IMG/VR virus record: IMGVR_UViG_3300031521_002449
Reading direction: 5' to 3' (one strand)
DNA from: a virus
Length of the DNA: 14,794 nt
Position numbers and translations under genes: made by a program. Below the pieces are notes generated by a model. The model saw nothing but the letters and a program-made list of their open reading frames with translations, did not search any database and was not told where the DNA came from. Shown here piece by piece: positions 1,071 through 12,433 of this stretch; within the stretch, counting starts at the first letter, position 1; every line of letters starts with the position of its first letter.

Positions 1071-1242
1071 TTATATGTTAAATTTTATTTGATTTATTAT
1101 TATTAACAATTCTTCTTTACATTCTTCTATATTATCAGATGTAAATATTATTGAATCTATCCCATCTATTTCTATAGATCCTTCTGTTTTTATTAAGTAT
1201 TGTTTCAAAATCATCGTTTTCAAATGTTTTAATATATTTCAT
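1071..1242 (-). pseudogene. frameshifted or truncated member of the MKYIK...KFNI tandem family
   Basis: Minus strand reads ATG AAA TAT ATT AAA ACA TTT GAA (MKYIKTFEND...), then stops after 35 codons. A +1 frame continues ...EGSIEIDGIDSIIFTSDNIEECKEELLIIINQIKFNI* and ends with the family C-terminus. The frame switch must lie near the A5 run in TAATAAAAACAGAAGG. Confidence 0.35.
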
Positions 1243-1243
1243 A

Positions 1244-1714
1244 TTAAATATTATATTTTTTTGAATCTTTTTTAATTTCTAACTCTTCCATCAATGAGCC
1301 TTTAATATAACTATAAACTCTAACCTTAAAATCAGGCGAAGTTTTAGTATTATTATAATTTGTAAATAACGTGTGCCATATATTTTCATTATCAATTTTT
1401 ACTAAAATATCAGAATCATGATATTTTGGATTTTCAAATTTAACATCTTTACATATACCAATAATGCTATGTTTTTTTTGATCGTGCGGATTTTCATTAG
1501 AAAAATCTAAGCTGTAACACCAAGTACATTGAAATGCTATTTGTTTGTTTATTATAATTTCTTTAGCCAGATCATAAAAATCAACGTTATAGTTTCTACA
1601 ATCTTCTTTTAAATTCTTTAAACTAAATGATTTATATGATTTATCTTTAATTTTAGAGAATTCATCTCTAATTGGTTGTTTTTGATGTATAAATAGTTCG
1701 TATAATTTTATCAT
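1244..1714 (-). CDS. tandem-family protein, 156 aa (N-term MIKLYELF, C-term KKYNI)
   Basis: ORF in the minus-strand array. ATGA overlap with the upstream member. Ends with the KYNI family tail. Confidence 0.55.
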   Translation of the reverse strand: MIKLYELFIHQKQPIRDEFSKIKDKSYKSFSLKNLKEDCRNYNVDFYDLAKEIIINKQIAFQCTWCYSLDFSNENPHDQKKHSIIGICKDVKFENPKYHDSDILVKIDNENIWHTLFTNYNNTKTSPDFKVRVYSYIKGSLMEELEIKKDSKKYNI

Positions 1715-2193
1715 ATATTGTATTTTTCAACTTTCTTTTTAAATTTTACTTCTTTATGTAATGGTTTTGTATCAGCATCGTAATCATAAATTGAAACTAT
1801 TGAATCACTATCTACTAAAAAAGATTTATCTGAAAGTGGAGTAAAATCTATATATTTTTCACCACTTAAAATTTGTATATTTGATAATGTAACATTAATA
1901 TAAAAATCATCTTTATAGTAAAGACAATCAACATCTTTCACCTTACCTTTTATTATTGGGTTATTTATAAGTTTATTTATATTTTTAAATATAATAGTTT
2001 TATTTATTAAAATTTCCTTGAAAAAATTTATAACATTTATATTATAAATACTCTCTAAAGTATAATCTTCATCAAATTCTTCACTATCAAGACTGACACC
2101 TAAATATTTAATAACATCATTAATGAAAAATTGATCTTTACCAAGCATATAATTATTTTCTACACCTTCAAATATTTTAAATTTTGTTATCAT
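1711..2193 (-). CDS. tandem-family protein, 160 aa (N-term MITKFKIFE, C-term EKYNI)
   Basis: ORF in the array with ATGA overlaps on both sides and the family tail. Confidence 0.55.
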   Translation of the reverse strand: MITKFKIFEGVENNYMLGKDQFFINDVIKYLGVSLDSEEFDEDYTLESIYNINVINFFKEILINKTIIFKNINKLINNPIIKGKVKDVDCLYYKDDFYINVTLSNIQILSGEKYIDFTPLSDKSFLVDSDSIVSIYDYDADTKPLHKEVKFKKKVEKYNI

Positions 2194-2417
2194 AGTTTTT
2201 TTATCGTATCTTTAATAGTATCATTTTTAACATATAATAAGTATTCACCTTTATTTGTTGTAAGGTTATAAATAGAATGACCTTCATTAATAGCGGTTAT
2301 AATTTCAAGATATTCATCTATTTCTTCTTTAGATAATTTATAACTTTTTGACAATTCTTTCAACGCCATTTCTTTTGTAATTTCTTCAGTTTTCAGAATT
2401 TCTGTTTTTTTCTTCAT
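2190..2417 (-). CDS. hypothetical protein, 75 aa, embedded in the array (no KYNI tail)
   Basis: ORF with ATGA overlap downstream and a 3-nt spacer upstream. K/E-rich, probably helical. Confidence 0.45.
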   Translation of the reverse strand: MKKKTEILKTEEITKEMALKELSKSYKLSKEEIDEYLEIITAINEGHSIYNLTTNKGEYLLYVKNDTIKDTIKKL

Positions 2418-2420
2418 ATA

Positions 2421-3152
2421 TTATATATTATATTTTATAAATTTCTTTCTAAGATTATATCTTTCAAATTTTTCTGGAAATTTTTCTTGTAATTCCTTAA
2501 TCTTTTTTATATCACCATTACTTGATAAATTAGATATAAAATCATCTCCTCTATCATCTTTAATACCCCAATCTGCATCTAATTCTATTAATTTATCAAC
2601 AATAGAAAAATTATCTTTTCTATGTTTCTCATTTGTAGCTTTCATTAAAGCTGTTCTTCCAAATGAATCTTGAATATCTAAGTTCGCGCCATATTTAACA
2701 AACAAGTTAATTATTTTAATTATTTGTGATGGTCTACCATTTGATGATAATATTGCAATCATCAATGGTGTTCTACTAGATTTATTTTGAACATTCGCAT
2801 TTGCGCCTTTCCTCAACAAACTTTCAATTTTTTTGATATTTAAACCATGAATTACATCAAACAATTTATTACTATCTACAGAATCATATATTGAAGATTC
2901 AGACAATTTTTTCTTAAAATTTTTATGAATTAAATATTTAACATATTTGTATATTTCTTTAGAATTTAGCAAATCAATACCATAATCATTATAAATATAA
3001 TGTATTATAAATTCTAGAACATGATCTTCAGTTAATGATTGATGTACATTAACAATATTTTTTATAGCCTTTCTATATAATATTGGAAATAGACTGGCTA
3101 TAAATTTTAGATTATTTGTTCCTTCTTTATATAATTCAAATTTGATTATCAT
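2421..3152 (-). CDS. ankyrin-repeat protein carrying the family termini (MIIKFELYKE ... KFIKYNI)
   Basis: Central ANK signatures: LLRKGANANVQNKSSRTPLMIA, LFVKYGANLDIQDSFGRTALMKA, LIELDADWGIKDDRGDDFIS (G-TPLH/ALM--A, GA-ID motifs). Embedded in the array with ATGA overlap. Confidence 0.7.
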   Translation of the reverse strand: MIIKFELYKEGTNNLKFIASLFPILYRKAIKNIVNVHQSLTEDHVLEFIIHYIYNDYGIDLLNSKEIYKYVKYLIHKNFKKKLSESSIYDSVDSNKLFDVIHGLNIKKIESLLRKGANANVQNKSSRTPLMIAILSSNGRPSQIIKIINLFVKYGANLDIQDSFGRTALMKATNEKHRKDNFSIVDKLIELDADWGIKDDRGDDFISNLSSNGDIKKIKELQEKFPEKFERYNLRKKFIKYNI

Positions 3153-3559
3153 ATGTTATATTTGTCTATTTCTATCTCAGTATTTATATTTTTTAATCTA
3201 TTTATCAATTCTATCATTTTTTCTTCTGATCCTATATACATATTACTAGTTGGGTATTCTTTTAATAAACCTATTTCATTTGCAATTTTTTTATATTTTT
3301 CTACTTTTATTTTTTCTGATGGTAATATACCGTCAGTAACATAAATAGAATATAACATTGTATTACCTGTATAATCAATATAATTTGATGTATAATATTG
3401 TTCTGTATCTGCCTTAAGATATTTAACTTTTTCTACTCCACAACTAATATTATTGTTTTTATCAGCAAAAACTTTATTTAATGAATATCTTAATTTATTA
3501 ACAAATTTTTTATTTTCTTCACTATATTGTAATGCATCATATGTTTTTATATATTTCAT
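3149..3559 (-). CDS. tandem-family protein, 136 aa (MKYIKTYD ... DKYNI)
   Basis: ORF with ATGA overlaps and both conserved termini. Confidence 0.6.
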   Translation of the reverse strand: MKYIKTYDALQYSEENKKFVNKLRYSLNKVFADKNNNISCGVEKVKYLKADTEQYYTSNYIDYTGNTMLYSIYVTDGILPSEKIKVEKYKKIANEIGLLKEYPTSNMYIGSEEKMIELINRLKNINTEIEIDKYNI

Positions 3560-4029
3560 ATGTTAAATTTGCTCTTAGTTTTATACATTTCTGAATCTAG
3601 ATCTAAATAAACTATAACTTCTTCATCTACATTATAATAGTCTTCTTCATTATCTATTTTTATACTTATATATTCAAATTGGAATATACTATCGTTTTTA
3701 CTATCCTCTGTAAAAGGACCTGATTCAAATGAAACATTAGTACATAATCCATAATGTGATCCAAAATCAGGATCATTAAAAGATATAACTTTATTTTCTA
3801 TTAAGTTTCTAACTAAAGTTATATATTCTGTTTCCATATCTGATACAATTTTATTATCATCAGGTATAGAATACCCACCTCTTGTTAATTTTTTATTTTC
3901 TCTTACTTTATTAGCATGATTTTCCATTTCAAAAATAAGTTGATGTAAATTAATATATAAATTTCCATCTTTTTCAATTATATTTTTCCATCTATAACCG
4001 TAGTCTTCAAATGTTTTTATATATTTCAT
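3556..4029 (-). CDS. tandem-family protein, 157 aa (MKYIKTFE ... SKFNI)
   Basis: ORF with ATGA overlaps and both conserved termini. Confidence 0.6.
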   Translation of the reverse strand: MKYIKTFEDYGYRWKNIIEKDGNLYINLHQLIFEMENHANKVRENKKLTRGGYSIPDDNKIVSDMETEYITLVRNLIENKVISFNDPDFGSHYGLCTNVSFESGPFTEDSKNDSIFQFEYISIKIDNEEDYYNVDEEVIVYLDLDSEMYKTKSKFNI

Positions 4030-4340
4030 ACGTTGTACTTTTTAATATTTTCTATTTGATCATCAAATTCTTCTTCATCCTCAATTAAGTTTCCTAAACC
4101 GTCATAAAGTTCATAACTATAATGATTTGCACCTTCACCAGTTTCATTAATATATTCTTCTATTCCATAATGAATACAACTATCTCTATCATCTGGCACT
4201 TTATAATAATTTTGATAATAGTTAGTATTTTCTATTCTTTTCATTGATACTTCAAAGCTACCATCAAAAGTAACCTTCAATATCTTATCAGCAGGATTAT
4301 ATGATCCTTCTAATGATTCATTGAATCTTTTAATTTTCAT
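4026..4340 (-). CDS. tandem-family protein, head of array 1, 104 aa (MKIKRFNES ... KKYNV)
   Basis: First gene downstream of the divergent intergenic region 4341-4425. Variant leader and tail. Confidence 0.55.
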   Translation of the reverse strand: MKIKRFNESLEGSYNPADKILKVTFDGSFEVSMKRIENTNYYQNYYKVPDDRDSCIHYGIEEYINETGEGANHYSYELYDGLGNLIEDEEEFDDQIENIKKYNV

Positions 4341-4425
4341 ACACTATATATAATTTTTCAAAACTAAAATAAATATTCAACTATAATTGATAGATAGAAT
4401 TCTATAAAAAATAATATAAAAAAAG

Positions 4426-7113: not shown

Positions 7114-8082
7114 ATGACACACAACAGAATGTTGGACCGTGCTCCCTCGGTCGTGATTACTAGTAATCGTAATGAATTAAAGGTTTATCAAGGAAACAAT
7201 GTTTACCTAAACAATGGTGATAACTTTGAACTAAGGTTTTTTAACCCATTAAATGAAAAATTAGGAGTTGAAATTAATTTCAACGGAATGAAAAAAGGTA
7301 ACGGCTATTTAGTCTTAAATCCAGGACAAGATATAGTCTTAGACCGTTTTTTAGATGAACAACGAAAAATGTTATTTGAAACTTATACTGTAGATGGTAA
7401 CAACGAAGAAGCAGTTAAAGCAATTGAAAAAAATGGTATAATTACATTTAATTTCTTCAAAGAATATGGTTCTTATATGCCTAAAGATGTAAATATAAAT
7501 TATGCTTTTCCACCTAAGCCTCGTAAATATGATGCTAATAGATATTCTAAAAGTATGAATTATTATAATTCAGGCACATCAGGGAATTCTGGAATATCAG
7601 GTAATTCTGGAACATCTGGCAGTTGTGGAACTGGTGGAAATGGTGGATTTTCAACAAATAATTTTAATTATACTGCACCTGGAGTTTTTTTCTCTGAAAA
7701 GGATTTTTCAACGTCTATATCAAATACTATGTTTTCTGCGGATTTATCAAGAGGTATATCATCAACTATCACAAATACTGTACATATCGATAAAGATTAT
7801 TGGTTTCCGTCATCAAGCAGTAACATTTCAGCAGTATTACCAACAATAGATAATTTAGAAACAGGAAGAATAGAAATGGGAGAAATATCAAAACAACAAT
7901 TAAAAACTATTAATGCTCAATTTTGTTCAACACCTATTCATACTGTAACATATCAACTATTACCTATTTCAGCAATGAATCGTACTATTAGTGAAGTTCG
8001 TCAATATTGTCCAGAATGTGGATATCGTTTAAGAAAAGAAACTTGGCATTTTTGTCCAAAATGTGGTGAAGATTTAAAATAA
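7114..8082 (+). CDS. protein with beta-rich N-domain, Gly/Ser-rich tandem-repeat linker, S/T/N-rich region and C-terminal zinc ribbon (CPECGYRLRKETWHFCPKCG)
   Basis: 322-aa ORF. C-terminal CxxC-x13-CxxC. Internal 18-nt periodic repeat encoding GTSGNS/GISGNS/GTSGSC/GTGGNG. Followed 14 nt later by the vWA gene. Confidence 0.55.
   Translation: MTHNRMLDRAPSVVITSNRNELKVYQGNNVYLNNGDNFELRFFNPLNEKLGVEINFNGMKKGNGYLVLNPGQDIVLDRFLDEQRKMLFETYTVDGNNEEAVKAIEKNGIITFNFFKEYGSYMPKDVNINYAFPPKPRKYDANRYSKSMNYYNSGTSGNSGISGNSGTSGSCGTGGNGGFSTNNFNYTAPGVFFSEKDFSTSISNTMFSADLSRGISSTITNTVHIDKDYWFPSSSSNISAVLPTIDNLETGRIEMGEISKQQLKTINAQFCSTPIHTVTYQLLPISAMNRTISEVRQYCPECGYRLRKETWHFCPKCGEDLK
7572..7646 (+). repeat. 4 copies of an 18-nt tandem repeat (GGNANNTCNGGNAATTCT-like) inside the CDS
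   Basis: ggcacatcagggaattct / ggaatatcaggtaattct / ggaacatctggcagttgt / ggaactggtggaaatggt, read directly from the sequence. Confidence 0.7.
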
Positions 8083-8096
8083 AAATAATAGAAAAT

Positions 8097-8705
8097 ATGA
8101 AAAAGATTGATATAATATGTATATTAGATATGTCTGGTTCTATGAGTTCTATTATAGCCAAGGCAAGAGAAGGATTTAATCAATTCTTAAAAGAACAACA
8201 ACAAAGTGAAAATAATATCAAATTCTCATTATTATTTTTTGATACAGATTTTTATATGCCATATAAAAATATTAATATTAAAAAAGTAAAACCAGTGAAT
8301 GAAGATACTTATTATTCTCGTGGTGGTACGGCATTACTAGACGCTATTGGGTTTTCAATAGAGTCATATTTAGATGATTTAGCATTAATACCGAAAAATA
8401 AAAGGGCAAATAAAACACTATTTGTTATTCTTACTGATGGAGAAGAAAATAGTTCAAAAATTTATCATAGAGACTTAATAAAATTAATGGTAGAACAAAT
8501 GCAGGAAGAATTTAATTTTGGATTTATTTACCTAGGAGCAAATCAGGATTCTTGCTTTCAAGCAGAATCTATGGGAATGAATAGAAGTAATGCTTTTAAC
8601 TATGATGCCACTAACGATGGAATAACAGTCGCATATTCAAAAATATCAGAAGCGGCAACATACTACGCTAGTAATAACGTAAAAGATAATTTATTCCAGC
8701 AATAA
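8097..8705 (+). CDS. von Willebrand factor type A (vWA) domain protein with an intact MIDAS
   Basis: DMSGSM (DxSxS), GGTALLDAI (MIDAS Thr), ILTDGEEN (MIDAS Asp), in the canonical order and spacing. 202 aa. Confidence 0.8.
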   Translation: MKKIDIICILDMSGSMSSIIAKAREGFNQFLKEQQQSENNIKFSLLFFDTDFYMPYKNINIKKVKPVNEDTYYSRGGTALLDAIGFSIESYLDDLALIPKNKRANKTLFVILTDGEENSSKIYHRDLIKLMVEQMQEEFNFGFIYLGANQDSCFQAESMGMNRSNAFNYDATNDGITVAYSKISEAATYYASNNVKDNLFQQ

Positions 8706-8977: not shown

Positions 8978-9130
8978 ATGAAAGAAAAGAAAAAAATTAG
9001 TATTCATTTTACTATAGATAAAGTAATAAACGAATCCTTTGATAGATTAATTAAAAATGAATGTTTAAATAAATCATTATTAATACAGACATTAATTGAG
9101 AAATATATAAAAGAAAAGGAAGTCAATTGA
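8978..9130 (+). CDS. putative ribbon-helix-helix (CopG/Arc-like) DNA-binding protein, 50 aa
   Basis: Hand-translated: MKEKKKISIHFTIDKVINESFDRLIKNECLNKSLLIQTLIEKYIKEKEVN. The pattern of an N-terminal beta-strand (KISIHFTID) followed by two amphipathic helices is characteristic of RHH regulators. Flanked by terminators. Confidence 0.4.
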   Translation: MKEKKKISIHFTIDKVINESFDRLIKNECLNKSLLIQTLIEKYIKEKEVN

Positions 9131-9140
9131 CTTCCTTTTT
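9114..9140. terminator. bidirectional terminator: perfect 18-bp palindrome GGAAGTCAATTGACTTCC with an A-run upstream and a T-run downstream
   Basis: Located between the RHH gene stop (9130, inside the stem) and the end of minus-strand array 2 (9140). Confidence 0.55.
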
Positions 9141-9493
9141 CATAAATTATATTTTTTTGTCATATCAAACAAATATGCATATTTTTTAATTTTATATTCT
9201 GGAACTTTAACATCTATTTGAGATGACCCCATGTGTAATTTTTCATTTTTAACTTTTAACTTTAAACTTTTAAGAAAATTGTAAAATCTATCATAAATCT
9301 CTTCTTCTGTAAAATCAAAAAAATAAAATGTAAAATATTCTTTATATAACCCGTTATTATCGTCAAATAGACATTCACTAAATCCTTCTTCTTTAGTAAT
9401 AGGAATTATATCCTCAAAATATAAGCAAACAGAAGTTAGAATATCTTCTCTTTCTTTTGATATGATATAATTCTCAAATATTTTAATTTTCAT
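9140..9493 (-). CDS. tandem-family protein, last of array 2, 117 aa (MKIKIFENY ... KKYNL)
   Basis: ORF with ATGA overlap to the upstream member. Tail is a KYNL variant. Confidence 0.55.
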   Translation of the reverse strand: MKIKIFENYIISKEREDILTSVCLYFEDIIPITKEEGFSECLFDDNNGLYKEYFTFYFFDFTEEEIYDRFYNFLKSLKLKVKNEKLHMGSSQIDVKVPEYKIKKYAYLFDMTKKYNL

Positions 9494-9807
9494 ATATTAT
9501 ATTTGATTGATAATTTTTTTGCTTCGTACTCTTCAATTTCTTTTGGTGTTAATTTTCTCTCAATTATATTTTTATTATCGTATAAAACATTGAGTTTATC
9601 ATCTGCAATTATTTCAAACTTTAGATTAAAGAAATCATCTTCTGTATTATTACCAACTATTTGAGCAAAATTAAATATTTTATATCCATTAGGCAATTGG
9701 GGGGTAGGCATAAACCAACTTTTTATGTTAGAATCTTCAAGTTTAACATAATCTCCTATTTGGAAATTTTCTATCCAACGATCTTCAAATTGTTTTATAT
9801 ATTTCAT
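9490..9807 (-). CDS. tandem-family protein, 105 aa (MKYIKQFE ... IKYNI)
   Basis: ATGA overlaps and both conserved termini. Confidence 0.6.
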   Translation of the reverse strand: MKYIKQFEDRWIENFQIGDYVKLEDSNIKSWFMPTPQLPNGYKIFNFAQIVGNNTEDDFFNLKFEIIADDKLNVLYDNKNIIERKLTPKEIEEYEAKKLSIKYNI

Positions 9808-10148
9808 ATGTTAAATTTTTTTGATTCTGACATTAATTTTGCGACATTTATACAATCTTGTAAATTATCCGATTCATATAATATTTCTTTTTCTTTATAT
9901 GGTCTATCTGTTACAAAATGTTTGAAGGACTGTTCAAGTGTCAATTTTTTATTTAAACCATCATATATTGCATGTCTTTTAGATCTGAAAAATATTCTCT
10001 CTTCAACATTTTTTCTATTCGGTTCTCTATATATATTTAACACTTCAAACACAACGTATATATCAAAAAAATGTGGCTGGTCTTGCCATATAACATATTT
10101 TTTAAGTTTTGGCAATTCTATTGATTCAAATTTTTTAATATACTTCAT
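9804..10148 (-). CDS. tandem-family protein, 114 aa (MKYIKKFE ... KKFNI)
   Basis: ATGA overlaps and both conserved termini. Confidence 0.6.
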   Translation of the reverse strand: MKYIKKFESIELPKLKKYVIWQDQPHFFDIYVVFEVLNIYREPNRKNVEERIFFRSKRHAIYDGLNKKLTLEQSFKHFVTDRPYKEKEILYESDNLQDCINVAKLMSESKKFNI

Positions 10149-10417
10149 ATGTTATATTTGTTTGCAATATATTCTTCTTCTGGTACTAATTTTAATTTTT
10201 TACCAGATACCCAATATTTATTATTTTTATTTTCAATTTGATATGGTTGATAATCATCTTCAGTATTTATAGCAACTATTTGCATAATAATAGTTGCTAA
10301 TGGATTATTCATTTTAACATGATCACCAATTTTATATCTATATGCTAGTAATAATTCAGAGTTTTCTTCTTTATTAATAGCATCAATATATATTTCATAT
10401 ATTTTTATATGTTTCAT
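10145..10417 (-). CDS. tandem-family protein, 90 aa (MKHIKIYE ... NKYNI)
   Basis: ATGA overlaps and both conserved termini. Confidence 0.6.
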   Translation of the reverse strand: MKHIKIYEIYIDAINKEENSELLLAYRYKIGDHVKMNNPLATIIMQIVAINTEDDYQPYQIENKNNKYWVSGKKLKLVPEEEYIANKYNI

Positions 10418-10725
10418 ATGTTAAATTTTAATGCATTATTTTTTATATTTTGCAAATCTATTTCTTCTGGTGTAGCAAATCTAAAATACATTTTATAACT
10501 ACTTATTTCGTTATTACTATCTGTTATATAACCATTTTTTGGACTATTAGGATTAATATCATATCTAATTTTAATCATAGTTTTAGTAGATCCGACCACT
10601 TCCCCTACATTAGTAGTTACAAAATTTTTTGCAGCGGGAAGAACTGTTGGATAACTTGGTAATGCAATTACAAAGTCTTCTGATTCAAAGTCTTGAAATA
10701 TTTCATATGTTTTTATATATTTCAT
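10414..10725 (-). CDS. tandem-family protein, 103 aa (MKYIKTYE ... LKFNI)
   Basis: ATGA overlaps and both conserved termini. Confidence 0.6.
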   Translation of the reverse strand: MKYIKTYEIFQDFESEDFVIALPSYPTVLPAAKNFVTTNVGEVVGSTKTMIKIRYDINPNSPKNGYITDSNNEISSYKMYFRFATPEEIDLQNIKNNALKFNI

Positions 10726-11024
10726 ATGTTAAATTTATTTGTATCATCAAGTATTGATAACATAGAAATACAATCTTTCAATCTATGTGCTTCATATACC
10801 ACATTTATATTATTATAATTAAGATAAAATGTATTATTCATAGTACCATAATTATGTTTATCATTATATTTGAAATAATATTTTACCTCAGCACGAAGTT
10901 TGCCAGTTTCATATAATATGTTTATAATTTTTATAATATAATATTTATATCTATCAATAAAATCATCAACTTCTCCGTTGGTTACAATAAGAAATTTTGA
11001 TTCATATGTTTTTATATATTTCAT
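10722..11024 (-). CDS. tandem-family protein, 100 aa (MKYIKTYE ... NKFNI)
   Basis: ATGA overlaps and both conserved termini. Confidence 0.6.
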   Translation of the reverse strand: MKYIKTYESKFLIVTNGEVDDFIDRYKYYIIKIINILYETGKLRAEVKYYFKYNDKHNYGTMNNTFYLNYNNINVVYEAHRLKDCISMLSILDDTNKFNI

Positions 11025-12331
11025 ATATTAAATTTTGCAGCATTTGCTTTATATATGAATTGCTCATAATTTTCAAAATCATCCTCTGATTTTTCTTCTT
11101 TTAATCTATTTTCAAATTCAGGTGACACAAACCATTGTAATATTTCACCTTTATAAAATCTTGCAAGATTAAATAAATCTAATTTTTTGTTATCATAATC
11201 TATACGAACATCATAATCATAATTAAATTCTGCTTTATCAAAATTTTCCTTAAATGCTTCTAAATTATCTACTTCTATTAATTTTGGAAAAATATCATCT
11301 GGTGATATCATATAGTCATTTATAACATTATTAACTTCTTTTTTTAAATCTTCGAAATCTCCCATAAATTTATATTTATCTTCTTCAAATTCATATGATA
11401 AATCACTGGCTTCATAAATATTTTCTAAAAATTCTTTTATTGTTTTAACATTCATATTATGTTTTTTCATATATTCTATAATTGATTCATAATCAAATAC
11501 TAATTCAATATCAAAATCTCCTGTGTGTTCAAAACTCAACTCAAATGGTAACGATTTTATTAATGCTCTTGCAGCTTTATCAATAGCACGTTCATTTTCC
11601 ATTGCTATTTCCATTTTAAAATCATCCAATTCACTTTTTAATCCTAAATAATTAAATAATTTATGAATTTCATTTTCTTCACCTGGATCTATTTCATAAT
11701 TAAATAATTTAGAAAATTCTTTAATTTTATTTAATGTCTCTTCAGATAAATAAGAATAGATATAATCTAATTCATCATCATCAACATAATAATCTTGGCT
11801 ATTTCCATAAGAGCCAAAACTTAAAAGATGATTTATAATACCCTCTTCTAATTCCATTAAATCTTCTAATTTTCTAGACTTCATAAAAATGATTAGTTTA
11901 TCTTTATCATACTCTGGTTCATATCTATAATAACTACTAGATTTTGTTATGTATTCTTTTTCATCTAAACCTATATAATTAACAATATCTTCTGGTTTGA
12001 AATCTGGGGATTCTAATATTTGAATTAAATTTTGTTTATCATCATCTTCATCATCTGAATAACTTTCTTTAACAGGATTATTTCTCAAATATTCCGCTTG
12101 TTTTAATGTTTTAAAGCTTATTGATTTAAGTTTCTGTATTTTAGAATTTTTATCATTATTTAACTTTGTGCGTTTTGCTGGATCTTTTTCTCTACCTAAT
12201 CTTTTTCTATCACTTTTAATACCTTTTTGTAAATAAACAGCATTCTTTAATAAACCTTTTTTAACTTTGAAAGGTTTTGCTGAATTTATTGTTATTGGTT
12301 TAAAATTTTCGTATGTTTTGATATATTTCAT
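11021..12331 (-). CDS. large acidic tandem-family protein, head of array 2, 436 aa (MKYIKTYE ... AKFNI)
   Basis: Long ORF. It carries the family leader even though no gene lies upstream of it. D/E-rich interior (SYSDDEDDDKQ...). Confidence 0.65.
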   Translation of the reverse strand: MKYIKTYENFKPITINSAKPFKVKKGLLKNAVYLQKGIKSDRKRLGREKDPAKRTKLNNDKNSKIQKLKSISFKTLKQAEYLRNNPVKESYSDDEDDDKQNLIQILESPDFKPEDIVNYIGLDEKEYITKSSSYYRYEPEYDKDKLIIFMKSRKLEDLMELEEGIINHLLSFGSYGNSQDYYVDDDELDYIYSYLSEETLNKIKEFSKLFNYEIDPGEENEIHKLFNYLGLKSELDDFKMEIAMENERAIDKAARALIKSLPFELSFEHTGDFDIELVFDYESIIEYMKKHNMNVKTIKEFLENIYEASDLSYEFEEDKYKFMGDFEDLKKEVNNVINDYMISPDDIFPKLIEVDNLEAFKENFDKAEFNYDYDVRIDYDNKKLDLFNLARFYKGEILQWFVSPEFENRLKEEKSEDDFENYEQFIYKANAAKFNI

Positions 12332-12433
12332 AACAATATATATAAAATTATTAAGGCATTTTTTTGTTAGATAAAATATTTTTATATTTGAACAACTATA
12401 TCTTAGAAAAAGATATAATAAAATAAAAATTAA

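Follow-up and report, generated by a model that had tools for sequence, protein, structure and literature searches.

We describe here a very large and apparently undescribed family of proteins that share a short conserved peptide at each terminus, among them the ankyrin-repeat (ANK) protein encoded at 2421..3152 of a 14,794-nucleotide viral DNA (IMG/VR record IMGVR_UViG_3300031521_002449; this whole stretch is called the window below). The window most likely derives from an uncultured, AT-rich, Mahaphage-type huge phage of bog metagenomes. The N-terminal peptide, or head, and the C-terminal peptide, or tail, each span ~10 residues, with the consensus M-K-[YH]-[IL]-K-x-[FY]-E-x-hydrophobic for the canonical head and L-K-x-N-[ATS]-[NK]-K-[FY]-N-[IL]-COOH for the tail. 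These tags are very likely modular signals that act at the level of the peptide. A terminal peptide pair on unrelated folds hints strongly at a common machinery that packages, docks, turns over or expresses these proteins, and the tags offer a direct handle for finding it.

Fourteen genes in the window, all on the minus strand and arranged in two translationally coupled arrays, end in K-[FY]-N-[ILV]-stop. The DNA pattern of the tail, AARTWYAAYDTDTRA, was found at 14 sites (0.41 expected), each of them on the minus strand at the end of an open reading frame (ORF), and the canonical head pattern occurs nine times against 0.00 expected. Nine of the 14 heads are canonical and four are variants; the remaining gene is a frameshifted copy.

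The ANK protein clears the curated cut-offs of several Pfam models: Ank_2 (E=8.8e-11, aa 106-199, 42.7 bits against a cut-off of 27.3), Ank (E=3.4e-10, 40.1 bits against 21.1), Ank_4 (E=1.1e-09, 38.8 bits against 22.7) and Ank_5 (E=1.3e-07, 32.3 bits against 27). In an AlphaFold model built from the window protein and its one available ortholog, four helix-pair units lie within aa 96-230 (96-114, 129-153, 168-190 and 205-224), with a predicted local distance difference test score (pLDDT) of 85-93. Both in sequence and in its stack of ~33-residue helix-turn-helix units, the domain is an ordinary member of the Pfam clan Ank. The repeats that an earlier note had read from the sequence are confirmed by these results, and the three peptides it quoted are present in the translation. 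The identical protein occurs on five independent metagenome contigs (JGI, ENA, Logan); the ortholog, P0002, is 57% identical and lies on a syntenic contig, and aa 11-95 of the ANK protein are common only to this ortholog. Untagged ANK homologs, which the note had envisaged elsewhere, were also found: the closest ANK outside the family, at 36% identity, is on a giant-virus-like contig resembling those of nucleocytoplasmic large DNA viruses (NCLDV), and another, at 29% identity, is a secreted bacterial ANK protein. A tblastn search with the ANK protein against 50,697 phage records gave no match.

The C terminus of the ANK protein (...RKKFIKYNI-TAA) is an exact family tail, that is, K-[FY]-N-[ILV]-stop after a small residue and N/K. 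Its head, MIIKFELYKE, does not match canonical M-K-[YH]-[IL]-K-x-[FY]-E and fits only a minority class, MITxFK[IV][FY]E, the window copy additionally carrying K6->E and E9->K; the head of the ortholog is MITKFKVYEG. The claim of the note that this gene wears the same head and tail as its neighbors therefore stands for the tail, whereas the head is a diverged variant. Residues 1-39 and the last few residues are modeled as low-confidence coil, and the head lies ~85 residues ahead of the first repeat, outside that repeat and its capping helix; in short ANK members of the family, the head directly abuts the first helix. Family genes flank the ANK gene on both sides, and its start shares an ATGA overlap with the stop of 3149-3559.

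Cargo diversity and separability of the tags

Because the tag motifs are too short for database-wide E-values, we used DNA pattern scans to collect the family. When IMG/VR was searched for the junction of tail and head, 99 stretches were recovered, mostly on 110-330-kb contigs of the same sample series, and a census of 910 kb of fetched DNA yielded 220 distinct proteins with head and tail, with a median length of about 118 aa. The heads belong to the canonical class in 181 proteins, to MITxFK[IV][FY]E in 26 and to MKIKKFNE in 13. Stripped of heads and tails, the middles form 65 single-linkage BLAST clusters. Pfam identified ANK in ~15 and leucine-rich repeats (LRR) in ~11 of 150 representatives and nothing else recurrent; neither the ANK protein nor the 150 family members matched PRANC or F-box. 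The largest cluster, with 74 members here and 522 matches in a database of 5.8 billion proteins on contigs of up to 711 kb, is a small beta-barrel with the signature GDYV...NNIG...Y.I.Y.NIP, whose best structural neighbors in Foldseek are Tudor, KOW and SH3-like domains, as weak matches that are not significant.

At least three unrelated folds (ANK, LRR and the SH3/Tudor-like barrel) are thus found between the tags, with all three head classes on barrel cargo and two of them on ANK cargo. Tandem two-barrel members of 218-219 aa carry a single head and a single tail, and the tags therefore mark the ends of polypeptides rather than domains. About a dozen LRR members (L040, L061, L075 and other loci; L332:13446-14279) have a 20-residue period, LPxLPxxLxxLxCxxNxL, a repeat type familiar from type III effectors of bacteria, here bracketed by head and tail.

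Each large contig holds at least 21-40 family genes in the mere 28-50 kb sampled, which amounts to 21-45% of the sampled sequence, and a genome probably contains tens to more than a hundred tagged genes. The tag motif is a simple annotation marker for hundreds of 'hypothetical' genes in Mahaphage-type genomes. An alignment of 150 family sequences gave only three weak matches among 5.8 billion proteins, and a profile of 13 window members gave eight matches among 1.84 billion representatives, the ANK protein of the window included. In 185,579 prokaryotic genomes, the head pattern gave mostly single chance matches, and the only four loci with at least two head/tail ORFs are probably misbinned phage contigs. 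In Staphylococcus phage Machias, the head DNA matched the gene of a 'virion associated protein'; this match lies mid-gene and was discarded as due to chance. The tags match no Pfam or PHROGs family. We found no description of the tagged family in the open-access full-text literature, and a comparative review of jumbo phages includes no such family, ankyrin or vault proteins. That terminal targeting or handling peptides occur on diverse cargo is a known principle; what is unusual here is that the system is two-ended, its scale, and its occurrence in the largest known phages.

Head and tail are coupled in this clade, in which the tail is present on 176 of 196 ORFs picked by the head alone (90%), and yet they are evolutionarily separable. 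The curated 462-kb 'uncultured phage' LR756500.1 has 25 genes with the head MKYI[KL]EYEEF, about half of which end in variants of NADDFGFFDN and none in a KFNI-type tail. Among the 210 head ORFs that IMG/VR yielded when scanned for the head alone, 119 lack the KFNI tail and often stand in arrays with other tails (such as GYTYI) or none. The cargos of these KFNI-less heads include LRR, GNAT, DUF2201 peptidase/von Willebrand factor A (VWA), ATP-grasp, polynucleotide kinase (PNK) 3'-phosphatase, lysozyme, NUDIX and 2-oxoglutarate (2OG) oxygenase proteins. The earlier note had proposed that diverse cargos carry the termini as portable tags, and this is supported by the census, the unrelated folds, the single tag pair of tandem members, the different head classes on one cargo family, the separability of the tags and the existence of untagged relatives of the ANK cargo. 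The type of tail seems to be clade-specific. The acidic tail ...NADDFGFFDN accompanies the same head on LRR and uncharacterized cargos in LR756500.1 (L332, 11706-17016), where eight other clusters were seen, and in L231, and another clade (L234) has the tail ...EKIEGYTYI.

An AlphaFold model of the barrel protein encoded at 9490-9807, built from 119 sequences, places the head (residues 1-10) and the tail (residues 100-105) outside the beta core at pLDDT<50, although these are the most conserved columns of the alignment. Head and tail are accordingly non-core and of low confidence in both models, in keeping with the possibility raised in the note that they are extensions, and they are predicted to be flexible and to lie outside the folded core. 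The canonical head has the pattern of an amphipathic helix, with a helical hydrophobic moment of 0.65-0.72 that is reached by 0.6-2.4% of shuffles; the value for the variant head of the ANK gene is 0.07.

The amphipathic pattern would also fit termini that are integral structural elements, for example an N-terminal helix or strand and a C-terminal strand that pair with each other or mediate homo- or hetero-oligomerization (head-to-tail chains), in one divergent family with domain insertions. The tight coupling of the tags in this clade fits such an arrangement, as do the conserved helix that precedes the tail (...KEELExxL... / KYPxxYxxYL...) and the fact that inserted domains such as ANK, LRR and small barrels can have their two ends near one another. 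Moreover, invariant positions give AlphaFold no covariation, so that pairing could be missed. However, in both models head and tail are free of packing contacts with the core and with one another, the ANK head is far from its repeat core, the cargo folds are unrelated, and many proteins have the head without the tail or with another one. We consider a structural role of this kind improbable.

Selection on the tag residues

Within the head, F/Y7 and E8 are conserved at 94-97%, and in ORFs selected by the head only, K(-4), [FY](-3) and N(-2) of the tail are conserved at 91-94%. Synonymous codon frequencies in the head equal or exceed bulk usage: AAG encodes K2 in 12% (bulk 10%) and K5 in 17% (10%), TAC encodes Y3 in 16% (7%), and GAG encodes E8 in 12% (13%). 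The tail Asn, conserved at 94%, is encoded by AAT and AAC in a ratio of 93:91. Synonymous sites thus vary freely while the residues are conserved, and selection therefore acts on the amino acids of the tags. Conservation of the junction purely at the DNA or RNA level was rejected as the main cause for the same reason. The stop codon constrains the tail in one position only: in 71% of family genes, the terminal NNA-TGA shares bases with the ATG of the following gene, and because of this ATGA overlap the last tail codon, and no other, is forced to ATA/TTA. AAC makes up 35-49% of tail Asn codons compared with 11% for Asn elsewhere in the same genes, independently of the stop/start overlap. Examples of such tails in the window are at 3152-3154, 3559-3561 and 9807-9809.

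Selection on residues need not mean that the finished peptide is recognized. The strongest rival explanation is an expression module, in which the head serves as an early-elongation ramp or start context that works without a Shine-Dalgarno sequence and the codons of the tail serve as the initiation region of the next cistron. New genes would gain both tags by recombining into operon junctions, and the peptides would have no post-translational role. Protein yield has been shown to be highest with K|N-Y|I at codons 3-5, whatever the synonymous codon, an effect at the amino-acid level (Verma et al. 2019, PMC6920384), and head residues 2-5, K-Y-I-K (variant K-F/K-I), match the best-expressing motifs. 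The ramp covers codons 3-5 only, however, and leaves F7, E8, the hydrophobic residues 10-11 and the conservation of the tail unaccounted for.

Other features of the genes point in both directions. Nearly all tag residues are of kinds that AT-only codons can encode (K, Y, I, F, N), no gene of the window has a Shine-Dalgarno sequence, leaders are A-rich, and stop/start overlaps are frequent, all of which would suit an expression module. On the other hand, E8 has no AT-only codon, head codons ending in G or C are not depleted, the acidic tail NADDFGFFDN of another clade is not AT-only, and the AAC enrichment in the tail is the opposite of an AT-rich requirement. It is the order of residues that is conserved and not composition alone. 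The tail is retained on last-in-array genes with only non-coding DNA downstream, and non-family genes such as 2190-2417 and 86-277 overlap by ATGA without KFNI.

With respect to the gain of tags by recombination, array junctions form 35-50-nt direct repeats of 70-86% identity, which could support the gain and loss of cassettes, and the head occurs on many unrelated enzymes in other phages. In a related genome, two genes lie upstream of the ANK ortholog compared with three in the window, one cassette being absent exactly at the junctions. Recombination at junctions probably contributes to cassette turnover. Taken as the whole function of the tags, the expression module appears unlikely, though it deserves serious attention; if correct, it would provide a natural design rule for Shine-Dalgarno-independent translation in Bacteroidota.

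The arrays also resemble the promoter early stem-loop (PeSL) cassettes of T4-type phages, in which small variable genes are flanked by short conserved DNA elements. The array ends here have a promoter-like TATATA, which in related loci often follows a hairpin, a hairpin terminator closes array B, and insertions and deletions of cassettes fall at junctions. In contrast to PeSL cassettes, promoter and terminator are found only at the array ends and not between genes, and the internal junctions consist of overlapping coding sequence. The conserved junction here is coding and under selection at the amino-acid level rather than an intergenic regulatory element.

Possible roles of the tags

If the finished peptides are recognized, head and tail could be docking or targeting peptides that would bring a diverse arsenal to a common destination, with the clade-specific tail as a second docking motif for a clade-specific partner. 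The arsenal would consist mostly of protein-binding modules (ANK, LRR, SH3-like barrels), joined by enzymes in sister clades. That the tags are docking or targeting signals of some kind is a tentative proposal, but a quite possible one and the one that we favor. The most likely destination would be the assembling prohead, from which the proteins would be packaged and co-injected with the DNA as first-strike counter-defense factors; a fast-evolving family dominated by binders and provided with a common address label fits such a packaged arsenal. By analogy with other phages, the capsid as the specific destination is conceivable, though doubtful. Should the tags load capsids, this would account for the delivery of a broad counter-defense arsenal, made in advance, by the largest phages and would provide a portable tag for packaging foreign proteins.

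The tagged family appears to work most like proteins carrying the capsid targeting sequence (CTS) of phage T4 or like the cargo of compartment-loading peptides. The T4 CTS is a 10-residue peptide, MKTYQEFIAE, in which residues 4 and 7 are critical for targeting; it is the only feature common to the hypervariable counter-defense internal proteins of T-even phages and is portable to foreign proteins, and both termini of Alt are processed (PMC8442874, PMC9026906). The canonical head (MKYIKxFExF) coincides with it at M1, K2 and F7 and in having a hydrophobic residue 4. Both systems place an N-terminal peptide of ~10 residues on otherwise unrelated, fast-evolving phage proteins (IPI/II/III and Alt in T4). 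Unlike the T4 proteins, the tagged proteins share a conserved C-terminal tag, are mostly acidic and lack a strict [LI]-x-E, the motif after which the prohead protease of T4-type phages cleaves, and they number tens to probably more than a hundred per genome rather than a handful. The family belongs to Mahaphage-type huge phages and not to Tevenvirinae. Of the features of T4-type CTS proteins, it has the common N-terminal peptide on unrelated proteins and lacks the highly basic charge.

Several observations weigh against delivery to the capsid, or against recognition of the tags altogether: (i) The similarity to the CTS amounts to 3/10 identities, is too short for statistics and could be due to chance. 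(ii) Virion association, cleavage and a receptor are all putative. (iii) The tagged proteins have a median isoelectric point of 5.7, with 73% below 7, whereas T4 internal proteins are basic. (iv) The arrays look like early-gene operons (small genes, an AT-rich promoter-like motif) and not like late structural operons. (v) The PNK phosphatase, ATP-grasp and NUDIX cargos of sister clades are normally cytoplasmic. (vi) The head of this clade has no strict [LI]-x-E, residue 6 (P3 relative to E8) being mostly T/K; in sister clades this residue is L. (vii) The match of residues 2-5 to the ramp motif means that amino-acid conservation alone is no proof of targeting. (viii) Low AlphaFold confidence does not demonstrate disorder. 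(ix) The ANK gene itself has a variant head without helical amphipathicity.

Among other giant phages, large plastic families of paralogous head and ejection proteins are known (PMC5694885). Families A and B of SPN3US and the inner-body proteins of phiKZ are likewise large plastic jumbo-phage families, and their propeptides are thought to be CTS-like (PMC5694885). In those phages, however, the members are true paralogs (e.g., pfam12699) with propeptides of >100 aa, in contrast to unrelated folds with ~10-aa tags. Searches of PHROGs and Pfam revealed no sequence relationship between the tagged family and the head/ejection families of SPN3US and phiKZ.

The loading peptides of encapsulins and microcompartments are short, terminal and often amphipathic helices on flexible linkers that direct diverse cargos into a shell. 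The canonical head shows a comparable amphipathic pattern. The known loading peptides differ in being poorly conserved and one-ended, and their genes share an operon with that of the shell; here, neither an encapsulin nor a bacterial microcompartment shell gene was seen, and the only cage-type gene nearby is a homolog of the major vault protein (MVP). One might extend the docking proposal to a two-signal cargo-loading code for a phage-built compartment, either the giant capsid, for co-injection, or a vault-like cage made of the phage's own MVP homolog; each genome would address dozens to hundreds of binders and enzymes in this way. Such a code is very improbable; if it existed, huge phages would own a programmable protein-packaging system, and the vault version would be a virus-encoded organelle in bacteria. 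The position of the MVP gene beside an array is not statistically meaningful and was dismissed as a link to vault cargo, MVP being single-copy and next to one of many arrays.

The prevalence of protein-binding cargo would also suit an adaptor or degron, with the termini tethering binders to a host or phage AAA+ protease or unfoldase, either limiting their own lifetime or delivering bound host defense proteins for destruction, as a bacterial analog of viral ANK/F-box and LRR/E3 adaptors. Poxvirus ANK-PRANC proteins and the ANK/LRR-F-box/U-box proteins of Legionella similarly form expanded families in which the ANK or LRR binder varies and a terminal module stays constant, but that module folds into an F-box-like domain, through which ubiquitin ligases of eukaryotic hosts are recruited, as opposed to 10-residue peptides in a prokaryotic one. 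ClpX recognizes N-terminal Met-basic-hydrophobic motifs and C-terminal basic/hydrophobic motifs such as RRKKAI of MuA. Both tags lie at the extreme termini and appear flexible, and MKYI... and ...NKFNI resemble these motifs; the resemblance, however, is loose, no protease or unfoldase partner was identified, and the enzyme cargos of sister clades are a poor fit for adaptors. We regard this role as decidedly improbable.

The same ANK and LRR domains are typical of effectors of intracellular bacteria, and the tags could accordingly be secretion signals in a phage of an intracellular or protist-associated bacterium, routing effectors through the host's secretion system. C-terminal signals of the Dot/Icm system are similar to the extended tail, in which a hydrophobic residue at -3 comes after an acidic block. 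The very low GC content, the abundance of protists in bogs and the giant-virus-like contig of the nearest ANK outside the family would also agree. Nevertheless, only about 17% of members carry ANK or LRR, the head has no signal-peptide character, and secretion signals are normally degenerate rather than tetrapeptides conserved at 94-100%. In addition, genomes of 300-700 kb and the link to Mahaphages, whose predicted hosts are Bacteroidetes, do not fit reduced endosymbionts. This explanation is scarcely credible. The framing of the ANK protein in the earlier note as an effector of large viruses or intracellular bacteria is unsupported as it stands: the context is that of a huge phage whose operons are prokaryote-style and which shows no NCLDV hallmarks, the untagged ANK homolog of 36% identity being the only link to NCLDV.

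Genomic setting of the tagged genes

The GC content is 20-30%. The only whole-window megablast match in the 50,697 phage records is 347 nt in the MVP gene, at 79% identity to LR756500.1. The head DNA motif occurs at ten places in that genome, seven in the 735-kb LR756501/3 and five in the 634,780-bp LR745206. The Mahaphage clade holds the largest of the published huge phage genomes, including every one >634 kb, with Bacteroidetes predicted as hosts (Al-Shayeb et al., PMC7162821). That clade is defined by terminase and capsid phylogeny, and the window is called Mahaphage-type here from MVP identity, head motif and gene organization. The lack of Shine-Dalgarno sequences together with the clade makes a Bacteroidota host plausible.

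An origin in an NCLDV, suggested by ANK, MVP, the low GC content and the NCLDV-like contig with the nearest untagged ANK, was rejected because of the operon structure, the ATGA coupling, the gene content of the neighborhood and the relatedness to curated huge phages. Neighbors in the window encode NT5C, a cold-shock protein, NUDIX, a zinc-ribbon protein, a VWA protein and the MVP homolog. Larger ORFs around related arrays include PPK2, Dam and N4/N6 methylases, MgtC, HD, SIS and PARG, as well as phage lysozyme, GIY-YIG/NUMOD3 and phosphoribosyl pyrophosphate (PRPP) synthetase; none of the larger ORFs around arrays in related contigs is an NCLDV hallmark.

The arrays of tagged genes appear to be operons, expressed from promoter to terminator, whose cistrons are translationally coupled (Table 1). 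Junctions in array A are mostly 4-nt ATGA overlaps, with the non-member gene 2190-2417 embedded, and every junction in array B is such an overlap. In related loci, the ATG of the first gene in an array is typically preceded, at a distance of 4-9 nt, by a T-run followed by AATATATA, in many cases with a hairpin immediately before it; the T-run + (A/T)ATATATA motif implies very short or absent 5' leaders and a phage-specific class of promoter. A scan for sigma-70 promoters was uninformative (135 sites against 136 expected), and terminator-like sites numbered 7 against 1.7 expected. No Shine-Dalgarno sequence was found upstream of any gene in the window, which, with the A-rich leaders, is consistent with a Bacteroidota-type translation system.

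Table 1 Coordinates of the ANK gene, its parts and the tagged arrays in the window
Feature	Position	Strand	Basis or content
Ankyrin-repeat family member, 243 aa	2421..3152	-	ORF, Pfam, AlphaFold model, identical copies, ortholog P0002
Head of ANK protein, aa 1-10, MIIKFELYKE, diverged variant class h2	3123..3152	-	pLDDT ~25, coil
N-terminal helical region, aa 11-95	2868..3122	-	pLDDT 35-67; no Pfam match
Ankyrin repeat core, aa 96-230, two canonical repeats and flanking capping repeats	2463..2867	-	Pfam, AlphaFold pLDDT 85-93
Tail of ANK protein, aa 234-243, LRKKFIKYNI, then TAA	2424..2453	-	Last residues low pLDDT
Array A	1071..4340	-	4026-4340, 3556-4029, 3149-3559, 2421-3152 (ANK), 1711-2193, 1244-1714, frameshifted 1071-1242
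Promoter-like motif (A/T run + TTATATATAGTGT) directly upstream of first array A gene	4341..4362	-	
Array B, seven family genes	9140..12331	-	11021-12331 (436 aa), 10722-11024, 10414-10725, 10145-10417, 9804-10148, 9490-9807, 9140-9493
Promoter-like motif TTTTATATATATTGTT directly upstream of first array B gene	12332..12355	-	
Intrinsic-terminator-like hairpin and T run right after last array B gene	9114..9139	-	
Small member, 105 aa, largest cargo class	9490..9807	-	SH3/Tudor/KOW-like beta-barrel, GDYV...NNIG motif

Some individual genes of the arrays are of interest in their own right. The frameshifted member 1071-1242 (minus strand) has a head, MKYIKTFEND..., in the frame 1135-1242 and a tail, ...QIKFNI, in the frame 1071-1223; the possible explanations are a pseudogene, an error in sequencing and a programmed shift, and the same arrangement is also called as a 47-aa gene on contig L001. 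Gene 2190-2417 (minus strand), directly after the ANK gene, encodes 75 aa (MKKKTEILK...DTIKKL) without head or tail. Its counterpart is kept at the same place in the contig of P0002, it has an ATGA overlap with the next family gene, and its product may be a partner of the ANK protein. The largest member in the window, 11021-12331 (minus strand), has no Pfam match; its counterpart (438 aa) is the array-first gene beside the MVP gene in L017, and relatives of 456-460 aa occur in L064 and L096.

The MVP homolog itself (12971-14794, plus strand) runs off the end of the window and matches MVP_shoulder (2.2e-24) and Vault_3 (3.6e-10) in Pfam. An 803-aa full-length relative (L017:5997-8405) matches vault chains in the PDB at E~2e-12 over MVP residues 455-757. 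The MVP gene of the window lies 640 nt from array B, and the 827-aa copy in LR756500.1 is about 4 kb from a head-tagged array. We found no paper on vault proteins in phages in the open-access literature, the only report being for Borgs. Elsewhere in the window, the gene pair 7114-8705 (plus strand) encodes a 322-aa protein in which a low-complexity stretch rich in Ser/Gly/Thr/Asn (SGTSGNSGISGNSGTSGS) is combined with a zinc ribbon at the C terminus, followed by the VWA protein, which belongs to phrog_7371 (E=6.7e-44); the pair is syntenic in a related contig.

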